Assembly: GCA_003345555.1 (NCBI GenBank)
Contig: PRDJ01000001.1
Location: 1-32,000 of the forward strand
Origin: Candidatus Thorarchaeota archaeon
GTDB taxonomy: Archaea > Asgardarchaeota > Thorarchaeia > Thorarchaeales > Thorarchaeaceae
Direction of reading: 5' to 3'
Length of the DNA stretch: 32,000 bases
Shown in pieces: positions 511 to 20,615 of the stretch; positions within the stretch are counted from its first letter, which is position 1; every line of letters starts with the position of its first letter. The translations under genes were made by a program, and so were the position numbers. The notes beneath the pieces were generated by a model that was not told the origin of the DNA, searched no databases, and saw only the letters and a program-made list of their open reading frames with translations.

Positions 511-1740
511 CTATTGCGGATAGGCTTCCTTGAGGCCATCCCAAGAGAATCCTAAAGCCTCGGCAACTAGTACAGCCAGATCCTTCGACTTCTTGCCTGA
601 CCCGGCTTGGGGAAGTTGGTCCTGCATGAAGTCAACACACGACGGACACGCAGAAATCACCTGCTCGGCACTGGTTTGCTCTATGTCCTTTAGTTTGAGC
701 TGGTTTATCTTCAGGGCGAACTCGTTGTCGATAGCTCGGAGAACGCCGCCCGAGCCGCAGCAGAAGCAGTTGTTCTTGTTATGAGGGAGCTCCTCGAACG
801 ATACTCCCGGCAGATTCTCTATGACTTTCCTCGGTTCCTCAAAGAATCCAGAGTTCCTTCCTGCATCACATCCATCATGGAATGTGATTGAGGTCTCCGT
901 GTGACGACCAAGATTGTTCAGTTTGCCGCTATCAAACAGGTCTGCCAGATATCTTGCGCCGTACTCGATTTCGAACGGATGCTCGATGTTCAGAAGCTCA
1001 TGGTACTCATGTGCCCACATCTTGTAGCAACCAGGACAGTTGGTGACTATTCGTTCCACGCCAAGAGCTTTGTACTTCTCTATGTTGTGAGCCGCGAGTT
1101 TCCGAGCCGTGTCAAAATCCCCCGTCATGAGCATCGGGGCCCCGCAGCACCACTCATCCTCCCCGAGTATGGTATAGTCCTGCTGGACCTTGTCCATAAT
1201 CAGAGTCGTGGCTATTGTAGCTTGGATTGGCACTGCCTTGAACGACGAAGCACATCCGAAGAAGAATGCAGTCTTTGCCTTTCGGCCAATCTTGCTTCGC
1301 ACCAGCTCTTCGTCAGGATGCCAGTACGACCACCCGTCGATTCGATCTGACTGAGATTGACCCTGAATGTTGTTAGTCTTCAACAAAGTGTCCCTTGCAG
1401 CTTCGAGGTTCTTTGGCCACATACCCCTTTTCCTGAACTCGGCACGCATCAGCTTGTAGAGCTTGACAAAAGGGATGTCGACTTGACACACTTCCTCACA
1501 TCCGCCGCACAAAGTGCATCCGAATATGGCGTCTCGGAGACCTTCAAGTCCCTCAGAGGGTTCGATGCGGCCCTGGACTAGTGCCCGGGCAAGAAGCATC
1601 TTTCCCTTGCCAGAGTAGCTATCAAGTCGTTTGACCTTGTATGTGGGGCAGGATCCGTGGCCGACTTGACAGAAACTGCACTGAGCGCAGGTGAAGGGCA
1701 TGTCTTGAAGGCCGTGTTTCTCAAGCAGTGGGAAGCGCAT
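511..1740 (-). CDS. Fe-S oxidoreductase with 2x[4Fe-4S] plus two CCG domains (HdrD/GlcF/GlpC family)
   Basis: N-terminal CAQCSFC-x6-CP and CTLCGGCEEVC motifs. Two complete CCG motifs, C-x34-CC-x35-CPGC and C-x35-CC-x36-CPSC, match the CX31-39CCX35/36CXXC consensus. Its stop abuts the menA stop exactly. Confidence 0.9.
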   Translation of the reverse strand: MRFPLLEKHGLQDMPFTCAQCSFCQVGHGSCPTYKVKRLDSYSGKGKMLLARALVQGRIEPSEGLEGLRDAIFGCTLCGGCEEVCQVDIPFVKLYKLMRAEFRKRGMWPKNLEAARDTLLKTNNIQGQSQSDRIDGWSYWHPDEELVRSKIGRKAKTAFFFGCASSFKAVPIQATIATTLIMDKVQQDYTILGEDEWCCGAPMLMTGDFDTARKLAAHNIEKYKALGVERIVTNCPGCYKMWAHEYHELLNIEHPFEIEYGARYLADLFDSGKLNNLGRHTETSITFHDGCDAGRNSGFFEEPRKVIENLPGVSFEELPHNKNNCFCCGSGGVLRAIDNEFALKINQLKLKDIEQTSAEQVISACPSCVDFMQDQLPQAGSGKKSKDLAVLVAEALGFSWDGLKEAYPQ

Positions 1741-1743
1741 TCT

Positions 1744-4871: not shown

Positions 4872-6827
4872 ATGGAGAAGGTTCTGATGGTGTTAAAGAG
4901 CGAGCAAGTATCGAAACTCGCTGAGGTTTTCGGAGACCGACTCGTCACAGCCAAACATGAGATGATTATTCATTCCCAGGATGTCGGTAGTCTGCCAAAA
5001 CAAGTCGGCTGGCTCATGAACACTAAGCCGGATGCAATCATACAGCCCCAATCTCCGGAGGACATTCAGTTTCTTTATGAGTTTGCTCGGGCTCAGAAGG
5101 TCCCGCTCATCCCCAGGGGTGCTGGAACCTCGGGCTACGGGGGAGCGATACCACGTAACGGCGGCATCGTTGTTGACATGCGCAGGATGGATCGAGTACT
5201 CAATATCGACAAGGAGAACCTTACAGTTACTGTTGAGCCGGGCATATCATGGCTCAATCTGCAGTTCGAACTGAACCGTCAAGGTCTGGATTTGAGATGC
5301 TATCCCTCTTCTGGCATATCGGCCACAGTGGGCGGCTGGGTTGCTCAGGGTGGAGATGGTATCGGATCACTGAAATACGGCAAAATCAATGATAATGTGG
5401 TTGAACTTGAGGTTGTTCTGCCAGAGGGTAGAATTGGCAATACCAAGGACATTGAGCTCTTTTGCGACACAGAAGGTATACTTGGAATCATAACGAAAGT
5501 CACCCTGAAGGTCAGGCAACTCACTCCAATGCGTTCCGTTGTAGTCAGCTTTCCCGAGAATTACTTGATGACATTCGCAATCGAGAAGATTCTGGCTGAG
5601 GGACCATTGCCTTTCACAATAAGATTCGAGGAGAGCAAGTACACGGACCTGAAGAAGAGAGTGTGGGAGTCAGACAAACCTTTCCCATTCCCAGTGAGTC
5701 ACTGTGTTCTCCTTGTTTCTTATGAAGGAACCGAGGACGAGATTCGGGAAGGCTTCGAAGTCGTGAGGCGGGTGGCCGAGGAAATGAAGGGCGCCGTCTA
5801 CGATGATTGGGTTGCAGAGCACGAATGGGAAGACAGGTTCTACCCAATGAAGATCAAGAAGATGGGCCCGAGTCTTGTTGTCGGACAGGCATTCGCCCCA
5901 ATCGAGAGCCTCGAAGGCATTCTGGACGATTTCCAGTTCGAACAGGCCTCAGCGAGAGCTGGCATTGATGGCTATGTGACTTCAAAAACTGGGGTCACGA
6001 TGATGGGTTACTTCCTAGAGGATGAGCGTCGCCACTTCTTCCTGCTCTCTTGGTCCCAAGCCTTCGTAGTATTCAAAATTGCTCAACGTCATGGGGGGCA
6101 CCCTCATTCGACGGGGATTTGGTTTGCCAATTATGCGCCCGCCTATTTCGGCACACGACGCTTGGCTAGAATCCGAGCGGCGAAGGTGGAGTTCGACCCC
6201 GAGGAGATATCTAACCCCGGCAAGATATTCGCGTACTGGCTTCCTTTCATACTCAGGGTTGGCAAGTACTTCATGTGGCTCGGCTTCGATCTTTTTAGAA
6301 ACGGGTTCGGCCGAATTGCGCCTATTATTCTTAGGTGGCTGCAGAATCTCCCGCCCATCAAGTGGATTCTTAGATGGGGCCGGGCATACAGTCCTTGGCC
6401 GGTGCAATATGGCCTCGGTTGCTGTATGGTTGAAGGTGCGGCCGCGGTCGCATCTCGCTGGGATCTTGAGAGATTCGGAATGCTGCCTTTGTTTGGCCCG
6501 CGACAGTGCGATGTGCTCTGGGTCTCTGGTTCACTGACCAAGAAGATGGCACCGCGTCTCCGCCGCATATACGAACAGATGCCTGATCCGAAATTTGTCA
6601 TATCGTTCGGTCAGTGTGCTGCGAGTGGCGGCGTGTTCTGGGATGGATACTCCTTGGTGACGCCGCCTGACAAGGTGATCCCGGTAGATGTCTACTTGCC
6701 GGGCTGTCCTCCCAAGCCGTCGGACTTCGTGAGGGCACACCTGATTCTTGAGAACAAGATTCGAGCGGGAACAACCTATTGGCAACGGAGATACGAGAAT
6801 CAGGATGCCATGGGCTTCGTGAAGTAG
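4872..6827 (+). CDS. nuoB: Fusion protein: VAO/GlcD-family FAD-linked oxidoreductase (aa about 10-452), amphipathic linker, then NuoB/FpoB-type [4Fe-4S] subunit (aa about 505-640)
   Basis: FAD domain motifs: PRGAGTSGYGG, ATVGGWVAQGG..G.GSLKYG, EGILGIITKVTLK, and C-terminal FDPEEISNPGK (6195). NuoB motifs: GLGCCMVE (6417-6431), PRQCDVLWVSGSLTKKMAP.LRRIYEQMPDPKFVISFGQCAASGG, VDVYLPGCPP. One uninterrupted frame. Confidence 0.92.
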   Translation: MEKVLMVLKSEQVSKLAEVFGDRLVTAKHEMIIHSQDVGSLPKQVGWLMNTKPDAIIQPQSPEDIQFLYEFARAQKVPLIPRGAGTSGYGGAIPRNGGIVVDMRRMDRVLNIDKENLTVTVEPGISWLNLQFELNRQGLDLRCYPSSGISATVGGWVAQGGDGIGSLKYGKINDNVVELEVVLPEGRIGNTKDIELFCDTEGILGIITKVTLKVRQLTPMRSVVVSFPENYLMTFAIEKILAEGPLPFTIRFEESKYTDLKKRVWESDKPFPFPVSHCVLLVSYEGTEDEIREGFEVVRRVAEEMKGAVYDDWVAEHEWEDRFYPMKIKKMGPSLVVGQAFAPIESLEGILDDFQFEQASARAGIDGYVTSKTGVTMMGYFLEDERRHFFLLSWSQAFVVFKIAQRHGGHPHSTGIWFANYAPAYFGTRRLARIRAAKVEFDPEEISNPGKIFAYWLPFILRVGKYFMWLGFDLFRNGFGRIAPIILRWLQNLPPIKWILRWGRAYSPWPVQYGLGCCMVEGAAAVASRWDLERFGMLPLFGPRQCDVLWVSGSLTKKMAPRLRRIYEQMPDPKFVISFGQCAASGGVFWDGYSLVTPPDKVIPVDVYLPGCPPKPSDFVRAHLILENKIRAGTTYWQRRYENQDAMGFVK

Positions 6828-6925
6828 TTCCTTCACCGGCGGCAATTCCCGCTCTTGGAGTCAGACTTGCGGTCAGCAATACTTATGTTCCAGAGATTCC
6901 CCTTCGAGGCCGGTCGGTTGACACA

Positions 6926-7393
6926 ATGGGGACCCTCAGGGAAGATAGCGACTTCTATTGTTTGCTTTGGCTTGGAGTAGCCTTGCTGAGCGCATACTAC
7001 TTCAACATCGGATACTTGGGGCTCACAATACCACTGTATCTCAGCACGGTACAGGTTTACTTGCTTCCGTTGGTAGGTTGCCCCTTAATCCTAGTTGTAG
7101 TCTTCGTTTCCTACCTGAGCCCATCCCGAGGCAGGTACAAACCCGTGGCATTCGCTCTGGCGATTGTTGTGTCTCTGTACTTCTACATCGTTGTGAGTTC
7201 ATTACCGCCGGTTGCAGGAATCACTTCCGATACATTGTTTCTATTATCGTGGGGAATTGGCAGCGCTCTTCTTGTGGCATCTGGTTTCTCGATAATGCCG
7301 GGTCGGTCGGAAACAACTAGCCCTGGTATTCTGGATGTTGGATCTCTCAAGTACGGCATTCCGACCGAAGAGGAGCACGAGGAAGCAGCCTAG
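6926..7393 (+). CDS. Hypothetical membrane protein (about 4 TM, 155 aa)
   Basis: Four hydrophobic segments and an acidic tail. ATG 6926 chosen over the longer ORF, which overlaps the preceding gene. Confidence 0.65.
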   Translation: MGTLREDSDFYCLLWLGVALLSAYYFNIGYLGLTIPLYLSTVQVYLLPLVGCPLILVVVFVSYLSPSRGRYKPVAFALAIVVSLYFYIVVSSLPPVAGITSDTLFLLSWGIGSALLVASGFSIMPGRSETTSPGILDVGSLKYGIPTEEEHEEAA

Positions 7394-7812
7394 CCGCGTC
7401 TGATAGTTTCAGCACTTGCTTTCGGAATGGCCAAGTCTCGCTTGGCTCTGGAAAGCTCACGGAGCCAGCTTAATGATGCCACCGTGAGAAGAACACCGAA
7501 TGCGGCCCAAAGAAACAGAATCAGACCGCTGTAAGGTTGTGGGAATAGGACGAGATTCAAGTACCCTTCGATTCCACCAAACACAGCGGACAGGAGAGTC
7601 AATGCTATTCGTGCCATCCTAGTTCTTGAAAATGATATCGCCAATGTTGATGCTACGAAGAGAGCATAGTCAACGAGTACGAGACCATAGAGAAGGTCTA
7701 TGACGCCTGCGTCTGCAACCCACCAAACATACAACGCTATCATTGCAAGGCCGACTGCGAAGACAGTATAGTAGACCAGGATACTCTTCGATTTTGACAC
7801 CAACTCTATCAC
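7390..7812 (-). CDS. Hypothetical membrane protein (about 4 TM, 140 aa)
   Basis: GTG start, four hydrophobic segments, 4-nt convergent overlap with its neighbour. Confidence 0.65.
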   Translation of the reverse strand: MIELVSKSKSILVYYTVFAVGLAMIALYVWWVADAGVIDLLYGLVLVDYALFVASTLAISFSRTRMARIALTLLSAVFGGIEGYLNLVLFPQPYSGLILFLWAAFGVLLTVASLSWLRELSRAKRDLAIPKASAETIRRG

Positions 7813-8604: not shown

Positions 8605-9048
8605 ATGAGGCTCTTCATTGACTTCAATTATGTCTTCGTTTGGGCCCTTCTTGCGGTAGCCCTAGTCGTCATCATGCTTGCGGCATCATGGATACTCCGC
8701 CCTCACATTCTACAGAACTCAGACAAGACTTCCACGTACGAATGCGGCGAAGAGCCGATAGGTCCCGCAAGAGTCTCCTATCCTTACAGCTACTTCCTCT
8801 ACACCATTCTCTTTGTCATCGTTGATGTCATGGGCGCGTTCCTGTGGTTGCTCTCAGTGTCCCAGTTCAGAACTACAGAGGCAGCTGTCTGGCAGATGCT
8901 GTTCTTTGTACTGCTAATCACAGCCGGAATTGGTTTTGCCCTGCGAATGTTCCCGCAGACGATTCTCAGCGGGAAAGAAACCCTCAAGCTCTATAGAGAG
9001 GGAAAGGCGAGACGCGATTCTCAGAAGACGGAGGCGGCCCAGCAATGA
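8605..9048 (+). CDS. nuoA: Complex I-like subunit A (NuoA/FpoA)
   Basis: Three TM segments with the loop motif KTSTYECGEEP and YFLYTILFVIVDV. Confidence 0.9.
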   Translation: MRLFIDFNYVFVWALLAVALVVIMLAASWILRPHILQNSDKTSTYECGEEPIGPARVSYPYSYFLYTILFVIVDVMGAFLWLLSVSQFRTTEAAVWQMLFFVLLITAGIGFALRMFPQTILSGKETLKLYREGKARRDSQKTEAAQQ

Positions 9049-9701
9049 TGATGCAGGGTGCAGAGGTCTTGCTTGAACAGGCAGAGTTCATTGGCGTAGC
9101 TGTCATCGTTCTTGTTCTTGCCTATCTCGCGCTCGAACACAAGGAGATCACCTATGCTGTATTCTTCTTCGGATTCATGGCGGCAGCTGTGGCAGGTTTC
9201 TACCTTCTGCTTGAGGCGCCTTTCTTGGTAGGATTGCAGATAGCTGTCTACACGGGAGGGATAAGTGCCCTGATCATATTCGGTGTCCTCCTCCTTCCTC
9301 GTGCTCAGGACTCCTCGCTGGAAATCTTTCAAACTGCCCGAAGGCGAAGGTTTGGGCTGCTTCTTTCAGGTGCCGTCATGTTACTCTCTGCAATTCTAGC
9401 GTTCTTCTATCCTTGGTCTGACCTACCCCCAGTGAGCCCTCCTGAATTAGCTCAAAGCCTTCAAGGGTTGGCCGCTTGGCTCTGGAGCGGTCATGGGATT
9501 TACGTCGAGATGGTTGCACTGATCATGCTTACTGCCCTTGTCGGGTCCGTTGCCATTCTGAAGATGATGAAGGCGGAAGAACTTCGTCCCTTGACCACAG
9601 AGTCTCATCCAGAGTCTGCGGGAAAGAAGGATGAATCCGGTTCCTCGTCTGCACCCCAAACTGAGACCGGAGAAGGAGCGAAGGAGGCTGGCCCCGAGTG
9701 A
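9045..9701 (+). CDS. nuoJ: Complex I-like subunit J (NuoJ/FpoJ)
   Basis: LQIAVYTGGISALIIFGVLL (NuoJ QxxVYxG motif); five TM segments; ATGA overlap with nuoA. Confidence 0.88.
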   Translation: MMMQGAEVLLEQAEFIGVAVIVLVLAYLALEHKEITYAVFFFGFMAAAVAGFYLLLEAPFLVGLQIAVYTGGISALIIFGVLLLPRAQDSSLEIFQTARRRRFGLLLSGAVMLLSAILAFFYPWSDLPPVSPPELAQSLQGLAAWLWSGHGIYVEMVALIMLTALVGSVAILKMMKAEELRPLTTESHPESAGKKDESGSSSAPQTETGEGAKEAGPE

Positions 9702-10018
9702 TTCCCTTGAGCTGGTACCTAATCGTGGCATTCATGCTCATTGGTCTTGGAGCCTATGGAATGATAACCAAGAGGAACTTGATTCGAATAATCATAGGCG
9801 CTGAGATAATGGCCAATGGAGTTAACATAGCGTTGGTTGCGTTTTCAGTTTACACCGAAGTCTTCACCTTCACTGGCCAATCTCTTGTCATCATCGTAAT
9901 AGCAGTGACAGCTGCTCATACGGCACTGGCAATGGCGCTCATGCTGATGTACAACGCGCGATATTCCACGGTGGACCTTGGAGAGCCGGTTGTTTCGGAG
10001 GGACGAAGGCATGAGTGA
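9698..10018 (+). CDS. nuoK: Complex I-like subunit K (NuoK/FpoK)
   Basis: GMITKRNLIRIIIGAEIMANGVNIALVAFS; three TM segments; GTGA overlap; GGAGG RBS upstream. Confidence 0.9.
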   Translation: MIPLSWYLIVAFMLIGLGAYGMITKRNLIRIIIGAEIMANGVNIALVAFSVYTEVFTFTGQSLVIIVIAVTAAHTALAMALMLMYNARYSTVDLGEPVVSEGRRHE

Positions 10019-10544
10019 GCCAGATATCTATCTCACAACGGTGTCACCCTCGGCGGTTGCTCAGGCAGTGAGAAGCAAATGTCCAGATGTCACGCAGAAG
10101 AGTATGCAGGGGAACCGTCTAGAGCTGATTGTTCCGCCCTCAAGAATCCGGGATGTCGTGGGCCTGCTTAACGAACTGATTTCTGACGCTCTTCCAGAGT
10201 CCGTCTTTGGCATCGACCTTCAGAATGACCGATACGAACTGATCTATGTGTTTTGGTCCCACCTCAACAGAATGCTGTGCCAGCTTCGTGTGAGTCTGGA
10301 AGGTACCGTACCCGAGGTCGACTCTGTCTGTGACATATTCCCGGGATTGGAGTGGCACGAACGCGAGACCCATGAGATGTTCGGCATAGGTTTCAAGGGC
10401 CATCCCGACCTGAGATTGCTTTTGCTCCCGGAGGAGCTGAGCGGCAAGTACCCGCTTCGAAAGAGATTCAAAACTGACAGAAGCCGATTGAGCGAAACTG
10501 GATTGCCCGAAGCTAGGCCAGGTTCAAAGGAGGCCGAAACGTAG
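10011..10544 (+). CDS. nuoC: Complex I-like subunit C (NuoC/FpoC)
   Basis: WHERETHEMFGIGFKGHPDLRLLLLPEE...YPLRK motif. ATG 10011 overlaps the nuoK stop by 8 nt. Confidence 0.92.
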   Translation: MSEPDIYLTTVSPSAVAQAVRSKCPDVTQKSMQGNRLELIVPPSRIRDVVGLLNELISDALPESVFGIDLQNDRYELIYVFWSHLNRMLCQLRVSLEGTVPEVDSVCDIFPGLEWHERETHEMFGIGFKGHPDLRLLLLPEELSGKYPLRKRFKTDRSRLSETGLPEARPGSKEAET

Positions 10545-11680
10545 TGTGCCCTGAGATTGTTGATGAGGCAGCTCAGGTCTGGTTCGGACCCCAGCACGTA
10601 TCGGCTCATGGGTGGGCTACGAAGCTCACAATCGTCGGGGACTACATTGTTGAATGCGATCCGAATGCAGGTTACTTTCACCGCTCGGCGGAGAAGTGCC
10701 TTGAGTTCAGGAACTTCCAGCAGGGCGCACTGATTATGGAACGGCTCTGTATGCTTGAGGCTTTCCTTGCAGAGTATCCTTACGTCAAGGCAGTTGAACA
10801 AATCGCCCAGCTTGATGTGCCAGAGCGAGCAAGGGTGATGAGAACTATAATGATGGAGGCGAGCAGGATTCACAGCCTCCAATTCTGGTGGGGTCAATTC
10901 GGGGCCGAGCTGGGCCTCTTTGCAATGACGCTCTGGCCTTGGGTCGATCGTGAGTATTTCCTCGATGCATTTGAAGAGCTGACCGGTTCTCGACATGCAG
11001 TCTCCTACAGCGCACCTGGTGGCGTCAAGTACGACTTCAACGAGAAGTCTATCAAGATGCTGGAGCGGGCTCTGGATAGGCTTGAGGATCGGCTTCCAAA
11101 GTTTCGTGACATGATTCTGAGAAGCCCCACTTTCAAGTTGCGAACCAAGAAGATTGGACTGTTTGACGCAGCACAGGGTTTGAAGTGGGGGTTGAGTGGG
11201 CCGAACATAAAGGCGTGTGGCATCCCGATGGATTTGCGAAAGGACGACCCCGACCCGAATCTCGCGTACGAGATGTGTGACTGGGAAGTGCCAGTGACGA
11301 CCAATGAGGATCATCCGGGTCAATGCGATGCCTATGACAGGATGTCGCAACGGTTCAAGGAAATCGAGACCTCAGCCAGTATCATCCGTCAACTGCTGCC
11401 TCAAGTGCCTGAAGGTCCTATCATAGACCCCAAAGCCCGCGCGAAGGCAAACAGGCTGCCCGAGGGAGAGGCATACGGTCGTGTCGAGGGCACAAGGGGA
11501 GTAACAACGCTCTTTCTCAAGACTGCTGACAAGGCTCAGACTCCTTACAGAGCAAAGATACGCGGCCCATGTTTCGCCTCGTACTACTCGTTGAAGCATT
11601 TGGTTCCTGGATCGACATTCGCTGACTTCGTCGTAATATTCGGCAGCCTCGACCCATACCCGGGGTGGTGGGATCGCTGA
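10544..11680 (+). CDS. nuoD: Complex I-like subunit D (NuoD/FpoD/MbsL family; not a [NiFe] hydrogenase large subunit)
   Basis: FGPQHVSAHG, GYFHRSAEK, RVEGTRG and YRAKIRGPCF motifs, ending GSLDPYPGWWDR. Both NiFe CxxC motifs are absent. Confidence 0.9.
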   Translation: MCPEIVDEAAQVWFGPQHVSAHGWATKLTIVGDYIVECDPNAGYFHRSAEKCLEFRNFQQGALIMERLCMLEAFLAEYPYVKAVEQIAQLDVPERARVMRTIMMEASRIHSLQFWWGQFGAELGLFAMTLWPWVDREYFLDAFEELTGSRHAVSYSAPGGVKYDFNEKSIKMLERALDRLEDRLPKFRDMILRSPTFKLRTKKIGLFDAAQGLKWGLSGPNIKACGIPMDLRKDDPDPNLAYEMCDWEVPVTTNEDHPGQCDAYDRMSQRFKEIETSASIIRQLLPQVPEGPIIDPKARAKANRLPEGEAYGRVEGTRGVTTLFLKTADKAQTPYRAKIRGPCFASYYSLKHLVPGSTFADFVVIFGSLDPYPGWWDR

Positions 11681-12822
11681 TGGGGGTCGGCACGATTCTT
11701 CAGATAGACATCGTGGGCTGGCTGAGCGGACTGCCCTCCTGGATTTACCTCGTAATCAGCGGGCTGTTCAGCCTTGTCTGGGCCTTCTTCAACTGGATAT
11801 GGAGCATTGTCGTCTGGTTCTGGGCACTGGCTATTTCCCAAATATGGTGGCTGTTCAAGGCCATAGTATTCCCGGGGTTAGTCTTCATACTGTTCTCCAT
11901 CATCTTCTCCGTGTGGTTCACGAGAAAGGTATGGGGCCGAGTGCAAGCAAGACGGGGTCCGTTTCACCTCGGTAAGTACGGGGGCCTCCAGGTATTCGCA
12001 GACGCGATAAAGCTAATTGGAAAAGAAATCGTGATACCTGACAAAGCCAAGCGATGGATGTACAGAATACTTCCATCTCTGCTACTTATCGCAGTTCTCG
12101 TTCCATTTGCGTTTATTCCATGGAGCAACGAATGGTATATCGCGGATCTCTCAGTGAGCCTAATAGTAACGTTTGCATTTCTTACAGTTGTTCCTGTGGT
12201 ATCTCTGCTTTCGGGCTGGATTAGCGGATCGAAGTACACACTCATTGGTGGCTTCAGGGCAGCTAACAATCAATTCGCTGCCGAGATACCCTTGATCATT
12301 TCCTCTGTTGGTCCTGCGATGCTTGCCGGCTCGCTAAGCATCATGGGCATTTCACAAGCTCAGTCAAGTCTTTGGTACTTTCTTCTGCTTCCTGTAAACT
12401 GCGTGACATTCATGGTGAGTGCTACCGTGATAACTGCGCTCGTGCCTTTCGATGCCCCGGTCGCAGACTCGGAGATTCTGTTTGGCTGGAGGACCGAGTT
12501 CAGCGGCATATACTTCACCATGACCTATTTTGCAGAGTTCGCTAAGCAGTTGCTGTTCTCCGGTCTCATAGTAGCTCTGTTCTTCGGAGGTTCATACGGC
12601 TTTGCATTCATGCCTCCTGTCCTGAACTTCATCTTCAAGTTCCTAATCGTTCTCTTCTTCATGATCTTGGTGACATCATCATTCTACAGGATGAGACAGG
12701 ATCAGGTCACTCACTTCTGCTGGAAGTATCTTCTGCCGTTGTCTCTGCTCAACGTTGTCATTGCGATGTTTGCGATTGTGTATGTCCCGGGATTGGCACA
12801 GCTGCTGGGAATCGGAGGTTGA
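11680..12822 (+). CDS. nuoH: Complex I-like subunit H (NuoH/FpoH) with a Trp-rich N-terminal extension
   Basis: RVQARRGP...GGLQVFADAIKLIGKE, SKYTLIGGFR and PFD....SEI..G..TEFSG motifs; TGATG overlap with nuoD. Confidence 0.9.
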   Translation: MGVGTILQIDIVGWLSGLPSWIYLVISGLFSLVWAFFNWIWSIVVWFWALAISQIWWLFKAIVFPGLVFILFSIIFSVWFTRKVWGRVQARRGPFHLGKYGGLQVFADAIKLIGKEIVIPDKAKRWMYRILPSLLLIAVLVPFAFIPWSNEWYIADLSVSLIVTFAFLTVVPVVSLLSGWISGSKYTLIGGFRAANNQFAAEIPLIISSVGPAMLAGSLSIMGISQAQSSLWYFLLLPVNCVTFMVSATVITALVPFDAPVADSEILFGWRTEFSGIYFTMTYFAEFAKQLLFSGLIVALFFGGSYGFAFMPPVLNFIFKFLIVLFFMILVTSSFYRMRQDQVTHFCWKYLLPLSLLNVVIAMFAIVYVPGLAQLLGIGG

Positions 12823-12829
12823 TGAAAGG

Positions 12830-13261
12830 ATGGGTTTCTTTAGCACGCTCGGTGACATATTCAGGGTACTGCGTCATACATTCCGTCAGACGATGACTCG
12901 ACCTTTCACCTACTTCTATCCATTTGAAGACCGGTACTATCCAGACACCACGAGGGGCAGACATATTCACATCAGGAAGAACTGCACGGCGTGCGCACAG
13001 TGTGTGAAAGCTTGTCCTACGATCGCGATAAGAATCGACAAGCAGGACCGCATGTACGAGAAGGATGCCGCCCTGCACTTTGATTATACACGCTGCATAT
13101 TCTGCGGTCTCTGTGTTCAGGCATGCAAGTTCAATGCACTCTTCCACACCAAAATTGTTGATCTCAGTGAAGAAACGAGAGAAGACCTGCAATACGGTCC
13201 TGACAGAATGGGCACACTCGAAAGGAAACCCCTCAAGTGGCGCGGGAGGACATTCAGGTAA
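12830..13261 (+). CDS. nuoI: Complex I-like subunit I (NuoI/FpoI), 2x[4Fe-4S]
   Basis: CTACAQCVKACP and CIFCGLCVQAC motifs; TRGRH and FDYTRC; GGAGGT RBS. Confidence 0.93.
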   Translation: MGFFSTLGDIFRVLRHTFRQTMTRPFTYFYPFEDRYYPDTTRGRHIHIRKNCTACAQCVKACPTIAIRIDKQDRMYEKDAALHFDYTRCIFCGLCVQACKFNALFHTKIVDLSEETREDLQYGPDRMGTLERKPLKWRGRTFR

Positions 13262-14775
13262 TGCAGGTCGTACAACTCCCATTCATGACGATTTCGCTTG
13301 CCATGTTGTTCTTTGGTGCGTTGGCTATCTATTTGCTGAAGAGCAGGCTGGGTGCGGGGGCAGGTAAAGCAGCAGCGGCTATATCATTCGCTTCCCTTGT
13401 GTTGATGATTCCGCCATTCTTCCGAGTTGTGGTGGAAGGCGGGCCTGCGATGGAGTCCGCAACTTGGTCCCAAGTGTTCGGCAGAGTCGGTCTCTACCTT
13501 GATGGCATCGCGTTTCCGATTACATTCGCAGTTGTGGTTCTTGGATTCCTGTCGGTGGTCTATGCCATCGGGTACACTCGAGAGATTCCGAACCAGCCAT
13601 CATTCTTTGCGAACCAGCTATTTTTCATCATGGGGATGCAATGGGTGACATTGGCCACGAATGTCATAGAGTTCTTCATAGCATGGGAGATCATGCTTGT
13701 CCCCACGTACTTCCTGATCCTGTTCTGGGGATTGCCCGAGACCAAGAAGCGCACTGCATTGAAGTTCTGGTTATACACACAGTCCGGCGCATTATGTATC
13801 TTCGTGGGATTCGGTCTACTGTACTATTTCGTAGGCTCATTCGAGCTCTCGGTCATCCAATCACTCCTGCCCACGTACGTGGGCTCGATTGACACTCTGA
13901 AGCTCATCTTTGTCTTGCTCGCCGCAGGGTTCCTCGTCAAGATGGCTGTCTTTCCTATTCACTGGTGGCTGCCCCCAGTCCATGCTGAGGCCCCAACACC
14001 AATCTCCGTTCTACTCTCAGGCGCAATGATTGAGACCGGTGCTTATGCCTTGGTCAGGTTTGGAACAATCATACTAGGAATTGCCGCTTCATCTCTTTCT
14101 GTATGGATTGCTGCAATTGGAGTAGTCACTATGTTCTACGGAGGCCTGATGGCACTGGCCCAGTCAGATATCAAGAGGTTACTTGCGTACTCATCTGTCT
14201 CCCAAATGGGCTATGTTCTCTTTGCGCTTGGCACATTCGCAACTTATGGTGTGTCGGGTGGCCTGTTTCATCTTATCAATCATGCATTCTCAAAGGGCCT
14301 CCTATTCATGACAGCAGGGGTCGTCATTCACGAGACGAAGGTGAGAGACATTGCTCAGCTGGGCGGGTTGTCGAACAAGATGCCAATCACAGCATTCGCC
14401 GCTGCTGTGGGGGCGCTGAGCATCGCAGGGAGTCCTCCGTTGTCGGGCTTCGCCAGCGAATGGATGATGTTCCTCGGAGGATTCCAAGCGGCACTGCCCG
14501 GTGCAGGTGGTTTGGCCCGACCCGAGTTCTTTGTTCTAGCCGTGCTTGGAGTATCAAGCACAATCATCAGCGCTGGGTATATGCTGAGATATCTGTGGAA
14601 AGTCTTCTTGGGACCGACACCGGAGAGCCTTGAGCACGTGAGAGAAGGACCTAGGTCAATGACCGTCCCCATGGTGACTCTGTCGTGCCTTATAGTCCTG
14701 TTCGGAATATTCCCGGGGCTTGCGCTTTCTGTGATAAGCCCGGCGGTGAACGCTATAGCTAACATAATTCCTTGA
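13261..14775 (+). CDS. Additional (fourth) proton-translocating antiporter-like subunit, HyfB/MrpD/NuoM-like
   Basis: AWEIMLVP, VKMAVFPIHWWLPPVHAEAPTPIS, DIKRLLAYSSVSQMGY, HLINHAFSKGLLF and PPLSGFASEW motifs. About 504 aa. TAATG coupling to nuoI. Confidence 0.9.
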   Translation: MQVVQLPFMTISLAMLFFGALAIYLLKSRLGAGAGKAAAAISFASLVLMIPPFFRVVVEGGPAMESATWSQVFGRVGLYLDGIAFPITFAVVVLGFLSVVYAIGYTREIPNQPSFFANQLFFIMGMQWVTLATNVIEFFIAWEIMLVPTYFLILFWGLPETKKRTALKFWLYTQSGALCIFVGFGLLYYFVGSFELSVIQSLLPTYVGSIDTLKLIFVLLAAGFLVKMAVFPIHWWLPPVHAEAPTPISVLLSGAMIETGAYALVRFGTIILGIAASSLSVWIAAIGVVTMFYGGLMALAQSDIKRLLAYSSVSQMGYVLFALGTFATYGVSGGLFHLINHAFSKGLLFMTAGVVIHETKVRDIAQLGGLSNKMPITAFAAAVGALSIAGSPPLSGFASEWMMFLGGFQAALPGAGGLARPEFFVLAVLGVSSTIISAGYMLRYLWKVFLGPTPESLEHVREGPRSMTVPMVTLSCLIVLFGIFPGLALSVISPAVNAIANIIP

Positions 14776-14785
14776 GGTGCGCCAG

Positions 14786-17002
14786 ATGCTGTTCGGACTA
14801 CCCTACTATCTGATTCTCGTCATTCCGCTGGCAGGTTCACTGGTTGTTCCTCTCGCTGGCCGCTTCAGTGAAAAGCTGAGAGACTGGACGCCCGCTTTAC
14901 TCATGGGCATTACGATGATTTTGTGCTGGTCTCTCTTCCCAGACATCGGTAGTCCTCAGGGGCCCACGAGTTGGCCTTGGATTGAGGCGTTGGGCCTTCG
15001 TTTCGAAGTCCTGCTGGATCCTCTGTCCGTCATCATGGCAGTTCTTTCGAGTACGCTATGCTTCCTGATCTACGTTTACAGCACGGAATACATGGCTCAC
15101 GAAGGAGATCGTGACAGGTTCTTCTTCCTAATGCTTGCTTTCGGGGGCGGCATGCTGACCCTTGTGCTCAGCAACAACCTTCTGATTGCATTCATCGGGT
15201 GGGAGATAATGGGCTTCTGTTCCTATGGTCTCATCGGTTTCTGGAACGATAGGAAGAACCCACCCGAGACCGACCCGACTGGTATTGAATCAAAGAATCC
15301 ACTGCTCCGCTTCGAAACAGAAGGTCAGTACAACACTCACTGCGGAACAAAGGCATTCGTCGTAACGAGAGTCGGGGACGCCTTCATGCTCGGAGGAATT
15401 CTCCTTCTGTTCATGTTCACCGGCACCTTCTCATTTACAGAGATGGCTGCCGATGCTCAAAGCTGGTGGCAGATTCTCTCTTCTGTTGGACTGCTATTCC
15501 CGACCTTTCTTCTCATATTCGCAGGTGCCATTGGAAAGTCAGGACAAGCTCCTCTCGACGTCTGGCTTCCCGAAGCAATGGCCGGACCAACGTCGGTCTC
15601 AGCACTGATTCACGCAGCAACCATGGTCAAGGCTGGGATATACATCACGGCTCGTTTTCTGGTCACCATGGCAAGCGCTGCAGACTCCGGAGTCGTTCCC
15701 GAGATTCTGCCTCCGTCTTTCGACTCCGCTGCGTCGTTCTTTACAGTTGTTGCCATAGTCGGGGGCGTTACAGCATTCATGACGGCTACCATGGGAATGG
15801 TTTCCAATGAGCTGAAGCAGGTTCTGGCGTTCTCGACTTTGAGTCAGCTCGGATACATGATGCTAGCGATGGGCACAGGGGGGCTACTCATCAGCTATCA
15901 GGAAGCATACATGAGCGGGATTCTGCACATCATAAGTCACGGAGCTTTCAAGGCTCTTCTCTTTCTTGCGGCGGGCGGAGTCATTCACGTTGTTCACACG
16001 AAGTACCTCAGCAAGATGGGCGGCCTCAAGCAGTACATGCCCAAAACATTCATTGTAATGTGGATTGGTGTGCTTGCTCTTTCAGGCATTCCGCCGTTCT
16101 CAGGTTTCTGGTCGAAGGATTCGATAATCGAGTACGCATATGACCTCGCGCTCCACAATGATGTTGGTATCTTCCTCTTCATTCTGGCTATTCTTGCAGC
16201 AGCTTGTACAATCTTCTACAGCATAAGGCTCATGGGGATGGCTTTCTATGGGCCTTCACGCGGCGTCGCATCAACCGAGGATATGAGTGCCTCACTAGGT
16301 CACGAGTCTCACGGGCACTCGGAGCAAGAACCGCATACCGAGCATGAGGAGCCGCATGACCCCGGCCGGGCAATGATGTGCCCTCTATACATTCTCGCTG
16401 CTTTCACAATCGTAGCCTTTGCTGTCTTTCCGTTTGTTGAGGCCGTGCTGTTCAGCGAAGGTCCTATGACAGTATCAGTGTGGACAAGCGTTCTCACAGA
16501 GATGGTGCTTGTGAAACTGACAATGCCGGGATTGGTGCCTTTCGTGTTCACATTGGGGGCATTGGCCTTGGGAGGAATTCCGGCCTATATTCTTTACATT
16601 GGACGGTCGGACCGGCCGAATACGGCGATACCCGATGCCGGGATCAGGAAGCGGCTATACGGTTTTCTCAAGCATCGTTGGTACATCAATGAATTCTACT
16701 ATTGGATTGTCGGTGGCGTTCTCAGATTCACGAGTTCTTGGAAGTCGAAGATAGATGACCGTATCATAGACGGCATTGATTTCGGCTCGGCTCGTACGGC
16801 AATCTCGGCGTCCAAGCGAATAAGATGGTTTGACGATCACATAGTTGATGGATTTGCAGAGGAGATATCGACGGCAAGCGTCGCTGCGTCAGAGTCGAGC
16901 GAGGTAATCGAGACCGGAAGAGTCAACGACTATGTGGCTGTTCTCATGTTCGGTGTCGGAGTTCTGGTTATTCTTGCTTTGATTTCCTTGGGGGTGATCT
17001 AG
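14786..17002 (+). CDS. nuoL: Complex I-like subunit L (NuoL/FpoL) with an extended transverse helix
   Basis: GWEIMGFCSYGLIGFW, KAFVVTRVGD, GKSGQAPLDVWLPEAMAGPTSVSALIHAATMV, FSTLSQLGY, HGAFKALLF and GFWSKD motifs; His-rich loop; C-terminal HL helix plus TM16. ATG 14786 follows a GAGGTG RBS (GTG 14777 is an alternative). Confidence 0.95.
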   Translation: MLFGLPYYLILVIPLAGSLVVPLAGRFSEKLRDWTPALLMGITMILCWSLFPDIGSPQGPTSWPWIEALGLRFEVLLDPLSVIMAVLSSTLCFLIYVYSTEYMAHEGDRDRFFFLMLAFGGGMLTLVLSNNLLIAFIGWEIMGFCSYGLIGFWNDRKNPPETDPTGIESKNPLLRFETEGQYNTHCGTKAFVVTRVGDAFMLGGILLLFMFTGTFSFTEMAADAQSWWQILSSVGLLFPTFLLIFAGAIGKSGQAPLDVWLPEAMAGPTSVSALIHAATMVKAGIYITARFLVTMASAADSGVVPEILPPSFDSAASFFTVVAIVGGVTAFMTATMGMVSNELKQVLAFSTLSQLGYMMLAMGTGGLLISYQEAYMSGILHIISHGAFKALLFLAAGGVIHVVHTKYLSKMGGLKQYMPKTFIVMWIGVLALSGIPPFSGFWSKDSIIEYAYDLALHNDVGIFLFILAILAAACTIFYSIRLMGMAFYGPSRGVASTEDMSASLGHESHGHSEQEPHTEHEEPHDPGRAMMCPLYILAAFTIVAFAVFPFVEAVLFSEGPMTVSVWTSVLTEMVLVKLTMPGLVPFVFTLGALALGGIPAYILYIGRSDRPNTAIPDAGIRKRLYGFLKHRWYINEFYYWIVGGVLRFTSSWKSKIDDRIIDGIDFGSARTAISASKRIRWFDDHIVDGFAEEISTASVAASESSEVIETGRVNDYVAVLMFGVGVLVILALISLGVI
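16751..16906 (+). repeat. Degenerate 26-codon tandem duplication inside the NuoL amphipathic helix
   Basis: IDDRIIDG at 16751 and FDDHIVDG at 16829 are exactly 78 nt apart; the two units share 7/26 identities plus I/V and I/F conservative pairs. Confidence 0.75.
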
Positions 17003-18520
17003 GTGCAGATTCTATTTGCTCAGCAAATCATCGACATGCTTCCCCTCGGCATACTTCCATTCATGCTTATACTCCCTCTCATCGCCTCAGTTATCGCCTA
17101 TGCTGTTCGCGGACGAGCCGCAAGGATTCTCACGCTTACTGTAACAGTTACTGAGCTACTCCTTTCATTTGTTCTTGCAATGGCAATCAATCCCGCCATA
17201 ATTAGTGGCGACCCAAACGCAGGTATGAAGTATCTCTGGAACTTCGTCATGGGACAGATTGTATCAGGCGGAGGCTCTACAGAACTCCAGATTGCACTCG
17301 GTGTTGACGGCATCTCGGTTGCCATGATCGTGCTGTCCAATTTCGTAGTGATGATAGCCACAATCAGCTCGAATCACATACACAAGTCCGAGGGCCTGTA
17401 CTATGCTCTAATGCTCCTTTTGCAGGTGGGGCTTATCGGAGTATTCATGTCCCTTGACCTCATTGGATTCTTCATCTTCTGGGAGCTAGTCCTGATTCCA
17501 ATGTTCTTCATCATCGGGCGATGGGGTGAGGAAGGTTGCCAGCATGCTGCTATCAAGTTCTTCATCTACACTCATCTTGGCTCTGCGGTGATGCTCGTCG
17601 CCTTCTTCGTTCTGTACTTCGTAGCCGTCCCACATACCTTTGACATGATAGCGCTCCGGAGTATGGGGCTGCCTCCAATGGTTCAGCTTGGATTTGCACT
17701 TGCAGTGTTCATGGGCGCGGGTGTGAAGCTGCCTGTCTGGCCGCTGCACAACTGGCTGCCGTGGGCTCATGTAAAAGCTCCGACACCTGGCTCTGTGATT
17801 CTTGCTGGCATACTCCTGAAGATGGGCGGTTACGGATTCATTCGGCTTGGGGTTTGGATGGTTCCAGACGCCTTTGCGAGATTGAGTATTCCACTCGCCG
17901 TGCTTGCGGTGTTCACGTGTATCTATGCGGCGTTCACAGCGATGGCTCAGACCGACCTAAAGAGTATGGTCGCCTACACTTCGATAAATCACATGGCTTG
18001 GGTTTTGCTCGGCGTTGCCATAGGGACAGCCACAGCACTACAGGGAGCAGTCTACATGATGGTCTCTCATGGAGTTATCATCTCCGTCATGTTCATTGTT
18101 GCAGGACAGCTCAAGTACTCCGCAGGTTCCAGAGAAATCCCCCAAGTCAAAGGATTGATGGTGCAAGCTCCGCGATTGGCGTCAGTGTTCATCTTTGCAT
18201 CATTTGCCACGTTCGGCCTTCCGGGTCTGAGTGGGTTCATCGCAGAGGCACTGATTCTTTTTGGATCGGTGAAGGTTTACGTATGGACTGCGTTAATCAC
18301 TCTGGGAGTGTTTCTGACAGTAGGCTACATTCTGTGGACATTGAACAGAATCGTATTCAGTGATGCTAACCCTGAGAAGCCGGTGACGGAGGCACCTTGG
18401 AGCGACCTTATTGCGCCCTTGATTACACTGATACCGGTAGTTATCTTGGGAGTGTGGCCTGACCTCCTGCTCGGGTTAGTGTCGCCGGTAGTTTCTTTCA
18501 TTGTTGGGGGTGTGCCATAG
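17003..18520 (+). CDS. nuoM: Complex I-like subunit M (NuoM/FpoM)
   Basis: FWELVLIPMFFIIGRWG, KFFIYT, VKLPVWPLHNWLPWAHVKAP, LAGILLKMG, YTSINHM, SHG and GFIAE motifs. Confidence 0.95.
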   Translation: MQILFAQQIIDMLPLGILPFMLILPLIASVIAYAVRGRAARILTLTVTVTELLLSFVLAMAINPAIISGDPNAGMKYLWNFVMGQIVSGGGSTELQIALGVDGISVAMIVLSNFVVMIATISSNHIHKSEGLYYALMLLLQVGLIGVFMSLDLIGFFIFWELVLIPMFFIIGRWGEEGCQHAAIKFFIYTHLGSAVMLVAFFVLYFVAVPHTFDMIALRSMGLPPMVQLGFALAVFMGAGVKLPVWPLHNWLPWAHVKAPTPGSVILAGILLKMGGYGFIRLGVWMVPDAFARLSIPLAVLAVFTCIYAAFTAMAQTDLKSMVAYTSINHMAWVLLGVAIGTATALQGAVYMMVSHGVIISVMFIVAGQLKYSAGSREIPQVKGLMVQAPRLASVFIFASFATFGLPGLSGFIAEALILFGSVKVYVWTALITLGVFLTVGYILWTLNRIVFSDANPEKPVTEAPWSDLIAPLITLIPVVILGVWPDLLLGLVSPVVSFIVGGVP

Positions 18521-20019
18521 TGTTTCAGCTTTTCACACCGATTGTCGATCTCATACGCGCCATTCTGAGTCCTATCACGCAGCAATTGCTTCAGTTCATC
18601 CCCTCAGATTGGCTTGGGTCAATGCCGGCTCTTACTCTTGTCGGGTTTGCAGTGATTGCCTTGGTCGTGGGCATTCGATGGAACCCGCTTCCTGTCAGCT
18701 TCATTGGAGTGCTGGTGGTTACAATCGAAATGATTGTTCTTGACCCGGTGTCCTCTTTTGGCGGCCTGTTCGTTAGAGATGCGTTTTCTGACTTCTTCAT
18801 TTACATCATTCTGATAGTCGGCTTCCTTGTCTTGATGTCATCCACCCTCCACAGCGGAGACCAGGGTCCTTACAACTTCCTACTGCTCATGTCGTTTGCA
18901 GGAGCTATCTTGGTAGTGACGGCTACCGATCTCATTGCATTGTTTCTTGCGTGGGAACTGATGTCCACCCCCACCTACGTTCTTACTGCGCTGAGTCCGA
19001 ATCGTGGAGCTGTCGATGGAGCAACGAAGTACTTCGTTATGGGCCTGATGGCCACGACACTCATGATATTCGGAATCGCTCTTGTTTATGGTGTCACAGG
19101 CCAAACTAGTCTATCAGTGCTGTCGTCGACTGTCGCGACAATCTGGAGTTCCGGCCCTGGACTATCCCCAGCGGCATACACTCTGATGCTCGCCATGATT
19201 CTCTTCGTGATATCATTCGGATTCAAAGTCGGCATCTTTCCCGGTTGGATGTGGGTACCTGATACCTATTCGACTGCTGACGGCAGTGTTACGTCGTATC
19301 TAGCAGGTGCGACTAAGAAAGCGGGTGTCAGCGCACTTGTCCGAATCTTGATGGTTGCGTTCATTGTTGCAAGGCTCAGCTGGGCTCCCCTAATAGTCGG
19401 AGTATCGATTCTAACTATGGTAATTGGAAATGTGCTCGCATTGGCGCAACGTAAAATCATGCGGATGCTGGCATACTCGAGTATTGCGATGATGGGCTAC
19501 TTGATGATAGGGCTCGCTGCAGGCACGGAACTCGGTGTAGCTGCGGCTTTCTTCCAAGCTTTTGTTCACGCTCTGATGAAGACAGGAGCTTTCATCTTGG
19601 TTTGGACAATCTCAGTGCGTTTGGCCCGGGATGTCACATACGACGACCTAGCGGGATTGAGTCAGAGGGCTCCGCTTGCGTCAGCGATGTTCGCAGTACT
19701 GATGCTTGCTCTTGCAGGGATGCCACTGACTGCTGGCTTTTGGTCCAAACTTATACTGTTTCAGAGTGCTGTTGAGGTCGGTATGTGGTGGCTTGCTCTG
19801 ATTGGGCTCCTGAATTCGGTGTTCTCATTGGGTTACTACCTAAGAGTGCTGAAGTACTGCTACATGATCGAACCGAAGGATGGATCTCCGCTGAAGCTTG
19901 CTAGCGTTCCGGTCATGGCTGTTGTTCTATGCGTTGTTGGTGTTATCGCATTCTTTGTCTTTCCGGGTGCCATCCTCGACTACGCGATTGGGGCTGCCGC
20001 AGGAATCGTGGTACCCTAG
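18520..20019 (+). CDS. nuoN: Complex I-like subunit N (NuoN/FpoN)
   Basis: AWELMSTPTYVL, ATKYFVMG, FKVGIFP.W.WVPDTY, RMLAYSSIA and GMPLTAGFWSK motifs; TAGTG overlap with nuoM. Confidence 0.93.
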   Translation: MFQLFTPIVDLIRAILSPITQQLLQFIPSDWLGSMPALTLVGFAVIALVVGIRWNPLPVSFIGVLVVTIEMIVLDPVSSFGGLFVRDAFSDFFIYIILIVGFLVLMSSTLHSGDQGPYNFLLLMSFAGAILVVTATDLIALFLAWELMSTPTYVLTALSPNRGAVDGATKYFVMGLMATTLMIFGIALVYGVTGQTSLSVLSSTVATIWSSGPGLSPAAYTLMLAMILFVISFGFKVGIFPGWMWVPDTYSTADGSVTSYLAGATKKAGVSALVRILMVAFIVARLSWAPLIVGVSILTMVIGNVLALAQRKIMRMLAYSSIAMMGYLMIGLAAGTELGVAAAFFQAFVHALMKTGAFILVWTISVRLARDVTYDDLAGLSQRAPLASAMFAVLMLALAGMPLTAGFWSKLILFQSAVEVGMWWLALIGLLNSVFSLGYYLRVLKYCYMIEPKDGSPLKLASVPVMAVVLCVVGVIAFFVFPGAILDYAIGAAAGIVVP

Positions 20020-20168: not shown

Positions 20169-20615
20169 ATGGGATTTCTGAGTAAACTTCAGGCGCCGAA
20201 GGCAACCGTAGCAGTGATTCTCGACAAGGGAACCTACAGTCTCAGAGAGCCGCTGCAAGGTAAGCTTGACGTCTCGTCATCCGAGGAGTTCGACGCGGAC
20301 GAACTGCGTATTGAGTTCTGGGTTAGTGAATGGACTAAGGCCACCCAACAGAAACAGGTCGGACAGCAGACCGTACCCGTAACCGCCGAGCAAAACATCA
20401 AACTTCACCAAGGCAAGCTTACGGTGGCTGGAGGAAGACACTTTACATCTGGCTTCCGTGAAAGCATTCCGTTTAGTCTACCGTTGCCGTCAAACGTGCC
20501 CCCAACCTACCGCGGTCAAAACGCCCGCAACACTTGGATGATGAAAGCCGTAATAGGTGTCAAAGGCCGACCTGATGTAGAGACGCGAGATATGGAAGTC
20601 GTCATCACCTATTGA
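20169..20615 (+). CDS. Single-domain arrestin-N/Vps26/SpoOM-like Ig-fold protein
   Basis: LDKGTYSLREPLQGKL and IPFSLPLPSNVPPTYRGQNARNTWMMKAVI match the arrestin-N pattern (Y..G..V.G.V ... PF.F.LP...PPS..G....I.Y..KA). Confidence 0.7.
   Translation: MGFLSKLQAPKATVAVILDKGTYSLREPLQGKLDVSSSEEFDADELRIEFWVSEWTKATQQKQVGQQTVPVTAEQNIKLHQGKLTVAGGRHFTSGFRESIPFSLPLPSNVPPTYRGQNARNTWMMKAVIGVKGRPDVETRDMEVVITY

Follow-up and report, generated by a model that had tools for sequence, protein, structure and literature searches.

The window analysed in this work, the first 32,000 nucleotides of contig PRDJ01000001.1 from a Candidatus Thorarchaeota archaeon (GenBank assembly GCA_003345555.1), contains a packed nuo-like operon on the forward strand (approximately 8.6-20.0 kb, gene order A-J-K-C-D-H-I-X-L-M-N), in which an additional gene, here called X, is placed in front of nuoL, nuoM and nuoN. 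We regard it as probable (about 0.8) that this operon specifies a four-pump, complex I-like redox-driven ion pump devoid of NuoEFG, with X, NuoL, a canonical NuoM and NuoN in its membrane arm. By its gene content the predicted complex is of the "2M" type, with two NuoM-type genes and four antiporter-like subunits; as described in the literature, the term denotes complex I with two NuoM-type genes in one nuo cluster (PMC9040806, PMC6606698, PMC7117926). According to the profiles and trees described below, X is a member of the NuoM-type group, of an archaeal branch that we name Mx, and on the same grounds neither X nor nuoM arose as a duplicate of the other, the two genes being of separate ancestry.

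Four-pump variants alter the ion gradient that is made or spent per electron pair, and it has been proposed that they aid organisms living close to thermodynamic limits or power a reverse flow of electrons towards ferredoxin. The present case extends the four-pump type to the archaeal relatives of eukaryotes, namely to the Thorarchaeota and three other Asgard families, and its extra pump would have come from the mixing of two NuoM lineages, not from tandem duplication. For the purposes of annotation, "two NuoM" in archaeal genomes should be taken as Mx and canonical M.

Four antiporter-like genes and the family of X

The first-pass annotation had recognized four antiporter-like subunits in tandem, and this is corroborated by the open reading frames (ORFs) together with Pfam and NCBIfam: X, nuoL, nuoM and nuoN follow one another on the forward strand, each with a PF00361 domain (240 bits for X against a gathering cut-off of 21.5; 203-225 bits for L, M and N by hmmscan and 191-227 bits when the genome was searched). 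The whole 2.28 Mb genome, which is 93% complete, contains no further PF00361 gene. As had been noted, X is coupled to nuoI by an overlap of its start codon with the nuoI stop (GGTAATGCAG) and is tightly spaced to nuoL, the ATG of which lies 10 nt downstream of the TGA stop of X (14773-14775) and is preceded by the Shine-Dalgarno-like GAGGTG; the L/M and M/N junctions abut or overlap by one base. The description of the locus as one complex I operon holds for the packed run from nuoA to nuoN but not for nuoB, which was not found within the operon; a NuoB domain is encoded in the upstream gene at 4872-6827. NuoF was not found in the genome.

X had been assigned to the HyfB/MrpD/Mbh type of antiporters on the basis of the motifs SQMGY, HAFSKGLLF and GFASEW, which are indeed present in X, with INHM and SHGVIIS in the local NuoM. 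However, motifs of this kind (SQMGY / H..xKG / GF.SEW) are common to the whole Mx group, including the single, ordinary M of ammonia-oxidizing archaea (AOA), and the assignment to the Hyf/Mrp type is contradicted by our trees. The best NCBIfam family of X is TIGR01972 (NDH_I_M; 295.1 bits versus a cut-off of 263.8; for the local NuoM see Table 1), with MbsH'-like NF006419 (275 bits), MrpA (268 bits) and HyfB (264 bits) as close runners-up. In pairwise comparisons with relatives of solved structure, X scores 190 bits with MrpA, 178 with MbhH and 169 with E. coli NuoM. The charged residues that carry protons are retained in X, namely Glu in transmembrane helix (TM) 5 (E143), Lys in TM7 (K227), His/Lys in TM11 (H341/K345) and Glu in TM12 (E400), and X is thus most likely a working fourth pump. 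X shares the M-type Glu of TM12 with E. coli NuoM (E407), whereas NuoL and NuoN have Lys there; since HyfB and HyfF share this Glu, the TM12 residue alone cannot exclude a Hyf affinity.

Trees were calculated from the four proteins of the window and the antiporter-like proteins of 40-odd loci, with E. coli NuoL/M/N and HyfB/D/F, the Mrp subunits of Rhizobium, Thermomicrobium and Natronorubrum, the Sinorhizobium "green" complex, and Nitrospira moscoviensis and N. defluvii (the Nitrospira genomes having been found by a 16S probe) as references; the L and M-like frames are broken in the pSymA locus of S. meliloti ABS7 (L024), and S. medicae (L027) was used instead. In the careful IQ-TREE calculation (75 rows, LG+C20 with posterior mean site frequencies; gene trees unrooted), X falls into an M-type superclade (support 99/98), outside of which lie HyfB/F, HyfD, MrpA, MrpD, NuoL and NuoN. 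Within this superclade, a canonical NuoM clade (100/100) unites the local nuoM with bacterial M, and X forms a clade (99/98) inside the broad archaeal Mx group. In approximately unbiased (AU) tests, joining X and Asgard NuoM in one clade costs 204 log-likelihood units and is rejected (p = 4e-63), in agreement with the earlier claim that X did not arise from the local nuoM by duplication. Rejection also applies to a clade of X, HyfB and HyfF (cost of 37 log-likelihood units, p = 0.02) and to an exclusive clade of Asgard X and the first M of Nitrososphaeria (p = 4e-8). Origin of the second NuoM by duplication of the resident NuoM is thus rejected, X and NuoM not being sisters, and the same applies to the four-pump operons of Nitrososphaeria.

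The layout in other archaea and the pump that was probably added

X is 67-93% identical across "Candidatus Thorarchaeota" metagenome-assembled genomes (MAGs), in many of which its homologues (67-89% identical) are annotated as NuoM, and it occurs in the operons of close relatives; X is therefore a real, conserved gene. Among 200 genomes sampled from the phylum, X orthologues are found in most genera of the window's family, and canonical M follows X in its presence or absence from genus to genus (g4, g5, g11 and g13 lack both), the few mismatches corresponding to fragmented assemblies. Beyond this family, X orthologues at 44-51% identity (blastp) stand in the same I-X-L-M-N context in G112 (a genome of the same order), G025 (family f18), G026 (family f5, a closed genome) and one NCBI MAG; in all, this context was found in Thorarchaeota and in the Asgard families f2, f5 and f18. 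A standalone nuoB lies between nuoK and nuoC in G112 and G026. Our searches of the literature on Thorarchaeota or Asgard archaea with NuoM or Nuo returned no fourth pump, and a preprint on Asgard bioenergetics discusses only shorter, hydrogenase-type arms (bioRxiv 10.1101/2024.07.04.601786).

The nearest Asgard relatives of X that are not its orthologues are the second large subunit in J-K-L-Mx-N' clusters. The NuoD-like partner encoded in these clusters keeps RxCGIC in 7/7 cases checked and DPCxxC in 3/7 (last 40 residues searched), and these motifs mark them as group 4 [NiFe]-hydrogenase-type complexes; the earlier suggestion that X stems from an antiporter-like lineage other than that of the local nuoM is upheld in this form. 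The membrane-bound group 4 [NiFe] hydrogenases of Asgard archaea and the MBH/MBS complexes of Thermococci (bioRxiv 10.1101/2024.07.04.601786; PDB 6CFW, 6U8Y) resemble the window complex in that the M-like subunit of the J-K-L-Mx-N' clusters is the nearest Asgard relative of X and MbhH the top solved match of the Mx profile, but, unlike these enzymes, the window complex has a NuoD that has lost the [NiFe] cysteines and four large modules including a canonical NuoM. Outside Asgard archaea, Mx proteins annotated as NuoM occur in Bathyarchaeia, Thermoprotei and Geothermarchaeota. We also observed [NiFe]-hydrogenase-type complexes with the orders K-N'-L-Mx and K-N'-Mx-L (L019, L021 of the Thorarchaeota genera g4, L038 and L040). 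The top-scoring distant matches of X in a search of representative proteins (P0126, P0129, P0130, P0132 and P0134) are proteins of 1250-1330 aa with two to three antiporter-like domains fused per chain, one of them from Sporomusa carbonis and another representing a cluster of 70 members.

In a further sample of 120 genomes of the class that contains the ammonia-oxidizing Nitrososphaeria, an A-H-J-K-Mx-L-M-N operon was found in four genomes, none of which contains amoA. The Mx, L and N of these operons group with AOA proteins, and their canonical M is the sister of Asgard canonical M (100/99). The first-pass annotation had proposed an independent origin of the fourth pump; since the same Mx-L-M-N order is found also in these Nitrososphaeria that are not AOA, the four-pump architecture is, as far as gene orders and trees can tell, an archaeal 2M type common to more than one phylum and not an invention of Thorarchaeota. 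Four-pump operons are patchy within the Asgard phylum and the phylum of Nitrososphaeria alike. Operons of the form K-Mx-L-N, with Mx as the only M, occur on the metagenomic contig L031 and in ammonia-oxidizing Nitrososphaeria (amoA is present in G203). Published work assigns heterotrophic marine Thaumarchaeota, by their complex I, to "2M clade 2" (PMC7300363), an additional M has been described in Angelarchaeales and Nitrososphaerales (PMC9038741), and descriptions of 2M complexes and of a 26-aa insertion in the lateral helix (HL) of NuoL are available (PMC7300363, PMC9038741, PMC9040806, PMC6606698). The published thaumarchaeal 2M clade probably corresponds to the Mx-L-M-N layout, the genomes sampled here serving as its proxy. 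The numbering of 2M clades reportedly goes back to Chadwick et al. 2018, and its definitions are used here at second hand.

Compared with the thaumarchaeal 2M form, the window complex is alike in the lack of NuoEFG, the two M-type subunits, the Mx-L-M-N order and the sister relationship of the canonical M; it differs in that the first M, L and N follow their own lineage in each phylum, in that the Thorarchaeota operon starts with A-J-K-C-D-H-I, and in that the Thorarchaeota NuoB is fused to a flavoprotein encoded elsewhere. The Nitrospira 2M complex ("clade 3"; PMC6606698, PMC9040806) also has four antiporter-like subunits, lacks NuoEF and has a NuoL helix longer by approximately 26 aa, but its operon reads A-B-C-D-(G-like)-I-J-K-L-M1-M2-N, both M copies fall inside the bacterial NuoM clade, and its L and N are of the bacterial type, whereas those of the window are archaeal; on these grounds, the Nitrospira four-pump form is of separate origin. 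The gene order of the Chloroflexi nuoL-M-M-N form (PMC7117926) is also unlike that of the window. The rhizobial "green" complex I and Complex_I_3 of Ca. Manganitrophaceae (PMC9040806) resemble the window complex in having more than three pump modules, a modular build and mixed antiporter lineages. There, however, two MrpD-like subunits replace NuoL, while the window keeps NuoL and its extra module is of the M type; in the S. medicae locus the two extra subunits group with haloarchaeal Mrp subunits. Finally, Fpo-like complexes, cyanobacterial NDH-1 and AOA Nuo (11 subunits, ferredoxin-dependent) are alike in the absence of the NADH module, and the Mx, L and N of the AOA K-Mx-L-N operon are of the same lineages as in the window, but these enzymes have three pumps and a standalone NuoB.

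Which of the pumps was added can be approached through the separate trees. NuoL of the window and of all Asgard four-pump operons groups with hydrogenase-type and AOA NuoL in an archaeal clade (98) and is not of the bacterial type, whereas in families f20, f22 and f26, where the operons are simply K-L-M-N, NuoL branches with bacterial sequences (100). NuoN of the window groups with NuoN of AOA and of contig L031, apart from the bacterial-type group. In the M tree, canonical M from every archaeal operon with four or five pumps falls into one clade (97), with the M of f20, f22 and f26 and bacterial M outside. Taken together with the K-Mx-L-N operons, these trees are most simply explained by the insertion of a canonical NuoM between the L and N of an archaeal Mx-L-N enzyme. 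X would then be the resident and nuoM the recruit, which reverses the first-pass view of X as the recruited gene; we consider this the somewhat likelier course of events.

Lateral helix length and the weighing of alternatives

The linker between the last two membrane helices of NuoL, as delimited by a simple hydropathy script, comprises 109 aa in the window, compared with 77 aa in E. coli, 85 aa in canonical Nitrospira NuoL, 77-83 aa in AOA and 73-91 aa in Asgard hydrogenase-type NuoL. All 14 four-antiporter operons (8 Asgard, 4 Nitrososphaeria and 2 Nitrospira) have linkers of 98-111 aa (103-109 aa in Nitrososphaeria, 108-111 aa in Nitrospira 2M), and the two five-antiporter Asgard operons have linkers of 130 aa. 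In the alignment, the extra block of approximately 26 residues repeats a "..D..I(I/V)DG" pattern and corresponds to an insertion of 26 aa that has been described in NuoL of the Nitrospira 2M complex (PMC9040806). The first-pass annotation had proposed to look for the long NuoL helix in genomes with X, and it was found in 8/8 operons with an X orthologue. A long linker is not exclusive to four-gene operons and the length rule is not strict; long NuoL helices have also been reported in otherwise canonical complexes (PMC9040806). Two groups of loci can be mentioned here. In the K-L-M-N operons L172, L173, L174 and L176 (f22, f20, f26), each of L, M and N branches with its bacterial counterparts, and the NuoL linker contains the "D..IVDG" repeat two or three times, as though meant to accommodate more than three modules; the NuoL linker of the hydrogenase-type locus L040 comprises 114 aa, yet the operon has three antiporter genes only.

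It is quite improbable that X is a HyfB/MrpD/Mbh-type protein recruited into a canonical L-M-N arm, so that its fourth pump would have arisen separately from every 2M clade described. Such a scenario would accord with the clear lack of a duplicate relationship between X and nuoM, with the presence of the nearest Asgard relatives of X outside four-pump operons in [NiFe]-hydrogenase-type complexes, with pairwise scores to MrpA and MbhH slightly above that to E. coli NuoM, with the independence of X from the Nitrospira L-M1-M2-N form (both M copies there being of the bacterial clade), and with the basal position of three-pump Asgard canonical M relative to the multi-pump M clade. However, HyfB/F, MrpA and MrpD lie outside the M superclade that holds X, a clade of X with HyfB/F is rejected by the AU test (p = 0.02), X passes the TIGR01972 cut-off and has the M-type TM12 Glu and motifs common to AOA M, Nitrososphaeria possess the same layout with a sister canonical M, and NuoL and NuoN of the window are of the archaeal lineage and not canonical. 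Unlikely as well, albeit to a lesser degree, is the notion that the ancestral archaeal complex was already Mx-L-M-N and that the three-pump forms (AOA K-Mx-L-N and the Thorarchaeota genera that have neither X nor M) go back to repeated losses, in which case neither of the two genes would be an addition made among Asgard archaea. The trees of the first M, L and N do track organismal groups, with the four-pump Nitrososphaeria next to AOA and Asgard next to Asgard, the second M of both phyla are sisters, and the rejection of an exclusive clade of Asgard X and Nitrososphaeria first M is expected if the AOA M shares their ancestor. Yet repeated loss requires several independent events, each accompanied by a shortening of the NuoL helix by approximately 26 aa, the multi-pump M clade lies within a set of canonical M sequences from Asgard archaea and bacteria, a pattern that looks like acquisition, and the distribution of four-pump operons is patchy in both phyla.

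Least probable of all is that X is not a stoichiometric pump but an assembly factor, an alternative form exchanged with NuoM, or a cation/proton antiporter module in its own right. The replacement of the TM8 Lys by Glu and the long NuoL linkers of some three-antiporter operons would suit this idea, but X is translationally coupled to nuoI and nuoL, it strictly co-occurs with canonical M and a lengthened NuoL in the 8/8 Asgard operons, it is highly conserved with its proton-path residues intact, and five-pump operons display a further linker step of approximately 26 aa. The preferred reading, an active four-pump enzyme derived from an Mx-L-N ancestor, nevertheless has to face several points that weigh against it. 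The assembly of X into the complex is a prediction from the genes, and the central TM8 Lys (K265 in E. coli NuoM) is Glu (E258) in X and Asgard Mx; thaumarchaeal Mx sequences have Gly at this position. The trees cover Nuo, Hyf and Mrp subunits; MbhH and MbsH were compared by profile score only, and the scores of the Mx-group profile are too similar to discriminate (320 bits for MbhH, the top solved match, 318 for NdhD and 317 for E. coli NuoM). The direction of gain, i.e. whether M or X was added, depends on unrooted gene trees, and the basal position of three-pump Asgard canonical M would also fit the replacement or addition of Mx and L onto a canonical complex. As regards the linkers, the script is crude, several sequences having been mis-segmented and four NuoL gaps of 29-36 aa ignored, while linkers of approximately 105-168 aa are found in the bacterial-type three-antiporter Asgard operons (f20, f22, f26) and of 101-114 aa in three other three-gene or incomplete loci.

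In the four-pump enzyme as we envisage it, X would stand in line within the membrane arm as the fourth module and, following the published reasoning on 2M complexes, would add one ion per cycle, thereby raising the yield from approximately 4 to approximately 5 ions per electron pair. The NuoL helix, some 26-30 residues longer than in the three-pump enzymes of E. coli, AOA and the hydrogenase type, would be roughly sufficient for one more module. X, NuoL and NuoN would descend from the archaeal Nuo lineage with its three-pump K-Mx-L-N arrangement, and the canonical nuoM, of the bacterial-type clade, was probably inserted later. Candidates for the entry or exit of electrons are ferredoxin at NuoI and/or the D-lactate-dehydrogenase-like flavoprotein fused to NuoB.

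Five-antiporter operons of the order A-B-C-D-H-I-J-K-Mx1-Mx2-L-M-N were found at L171:452-7108 (G067, Asgard family f12), L170:7073-15306 (G031, Asgard family f16) and L177:10001-13645 (GCA_019057385.1); in L177 Mx1 is a single intact frame (495 aa), whereas it is split into two in L170. Ca. Manganitrophaceae has a five-pump complex that has been called unique (PMC9040806), and the operon form found here would be a second case, differently built. It is tempting to consider, as a tentative proposal with less than even odds, that Asgard archaea harbor a graded series of three-, four- and five-pump complexes, in which hydrogenase-lineage Mx subunits and canonical NuoM are stacked around one NuoL whose helix grows by approximately 26 residues per module (77, ~105 and 130), and that the four-pump form of Thorarchaeia is wired to the NuoB-fused flavoprotein and may run without a quinone, e.g. 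coupled in one direction or the other to redox steps linked to ferredoxin, at a high ratio of ions to electrons. No part of this proposal was found described for Asgard archaea in the literature searched. We consider this series a more interesting lead than the four-pump operon itself, and it would offer a natural set of three, four and five modules in which to test whether membrane-arm length is determined by the lateral helix of NuoL.

Gene coordinates, electron route and neighbouring genes

Table 1. Genes and segments of the window related to the predicted four-pump complex
Feature	Position	Strand	Support
X, archaeal-lineage NuoM-type (Mx) antiporter-like subunit, 504 aa from ATG	13261..14775	+	PF00361 (E = 3.9e-71); TIGR01972
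nuoL, 738 aa (ATG 14786) or 741 aa (GTG 14777), lateral helix lengthened	14786..17002	+	PF00361 + PF00662; TIGR01974
nuoL lateral helix (HL) segment between the last two membrane helices, ~109 residues	16595..16921	+	TM15-TM16 gap; alignment
nuoM, canonical-type NuoM, 505 aa	17003..18520	+	TIGR01972 (431 bits)
nuoN, 499 aa	18520..20019	+	TIGR01770 (303 bits, under its cut-off of 332.6)
nuoA	8605..9048	+	PF00507
nuoJ	9045..9701	+	PF00499
nuoK	9698..10018	+	PF00420
nuoC	9978..10544	+	PF00329
nuoD without [NiFe] cysteine ligands	10544..11680	+	PF00346 (208 bits)
nuoH	11665..12822	+	PF00146
nuoI (2x[4Fe-4S]), start codon uncertain (143 aa in relatives)	12755..13261	+	Fer4 families
Oxidase linked to flavin adenine dinucleotide (FAD), GlcD/D-lactate dehydrogenase-like, with C-terminal NuoB domain	4872..6827	+	PF01565 + PF02913 + PF01058
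HdrD/GlcF-like CCG + 4Fe-4S protein	511..1740	-	PF02754 + PF13183

The NuoB domain of the flavoprotein fusion keeps all cysteines of the N2 cluster (CC..E, GQCAASGG, PGCPP), and, to judge from its sequence, the fusion supplies the NuoB that is missing from the operon. The HdrD/GlcF-like protein is the likely partner of the flavoprotein, and its gene is retained beside the flavoprotein-NuoB fusion in L005. In a multi-pump operon of G041 (family f16), nuoN is directly followed by genes for a free-standing FAD oxidase (527 aa) and for a CCG protein (L175:3367-6133), which suggests that the link of the flavoprotein pair to multi-pump complexes may be older than the fusion.

Neither RxCGxC nor DPCxxC is present in NuoD of the window, the C-terminus of which reads DPYPGWWDR, and by this token NuoD is not a hydrogenase subunit. 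The quinone-site tyrosine ("DY") is missing from NuoD of the window and of AOA alike, and therefore its absence says nothing about the acceptor. A search of the 93% complete genome for MqnA (PF02621) gave no match, a weak pointer that says little about quinones.

In the closest relative, G152 (L004, same genus), the FAD-oxidase-NuoB gene (1239-3193) and nuoD (6649-7786) each appear as two overlapping frames, and nuoM (G152:C5:105122-106624) has one in-frame TAG; these features could reflect assembly error, frameshift or recoding. The ORF at 20169-20615, just downstream of nuoN in the window, gives weak matches to Arrestin_N (PF00339, 26.2 bits versus a cut-off of 24.9) and Spo0M, and its product may be a protein with an arrestin fold, a type that has been discussed among the eukaryotic signature proteins of Asgard archaea.

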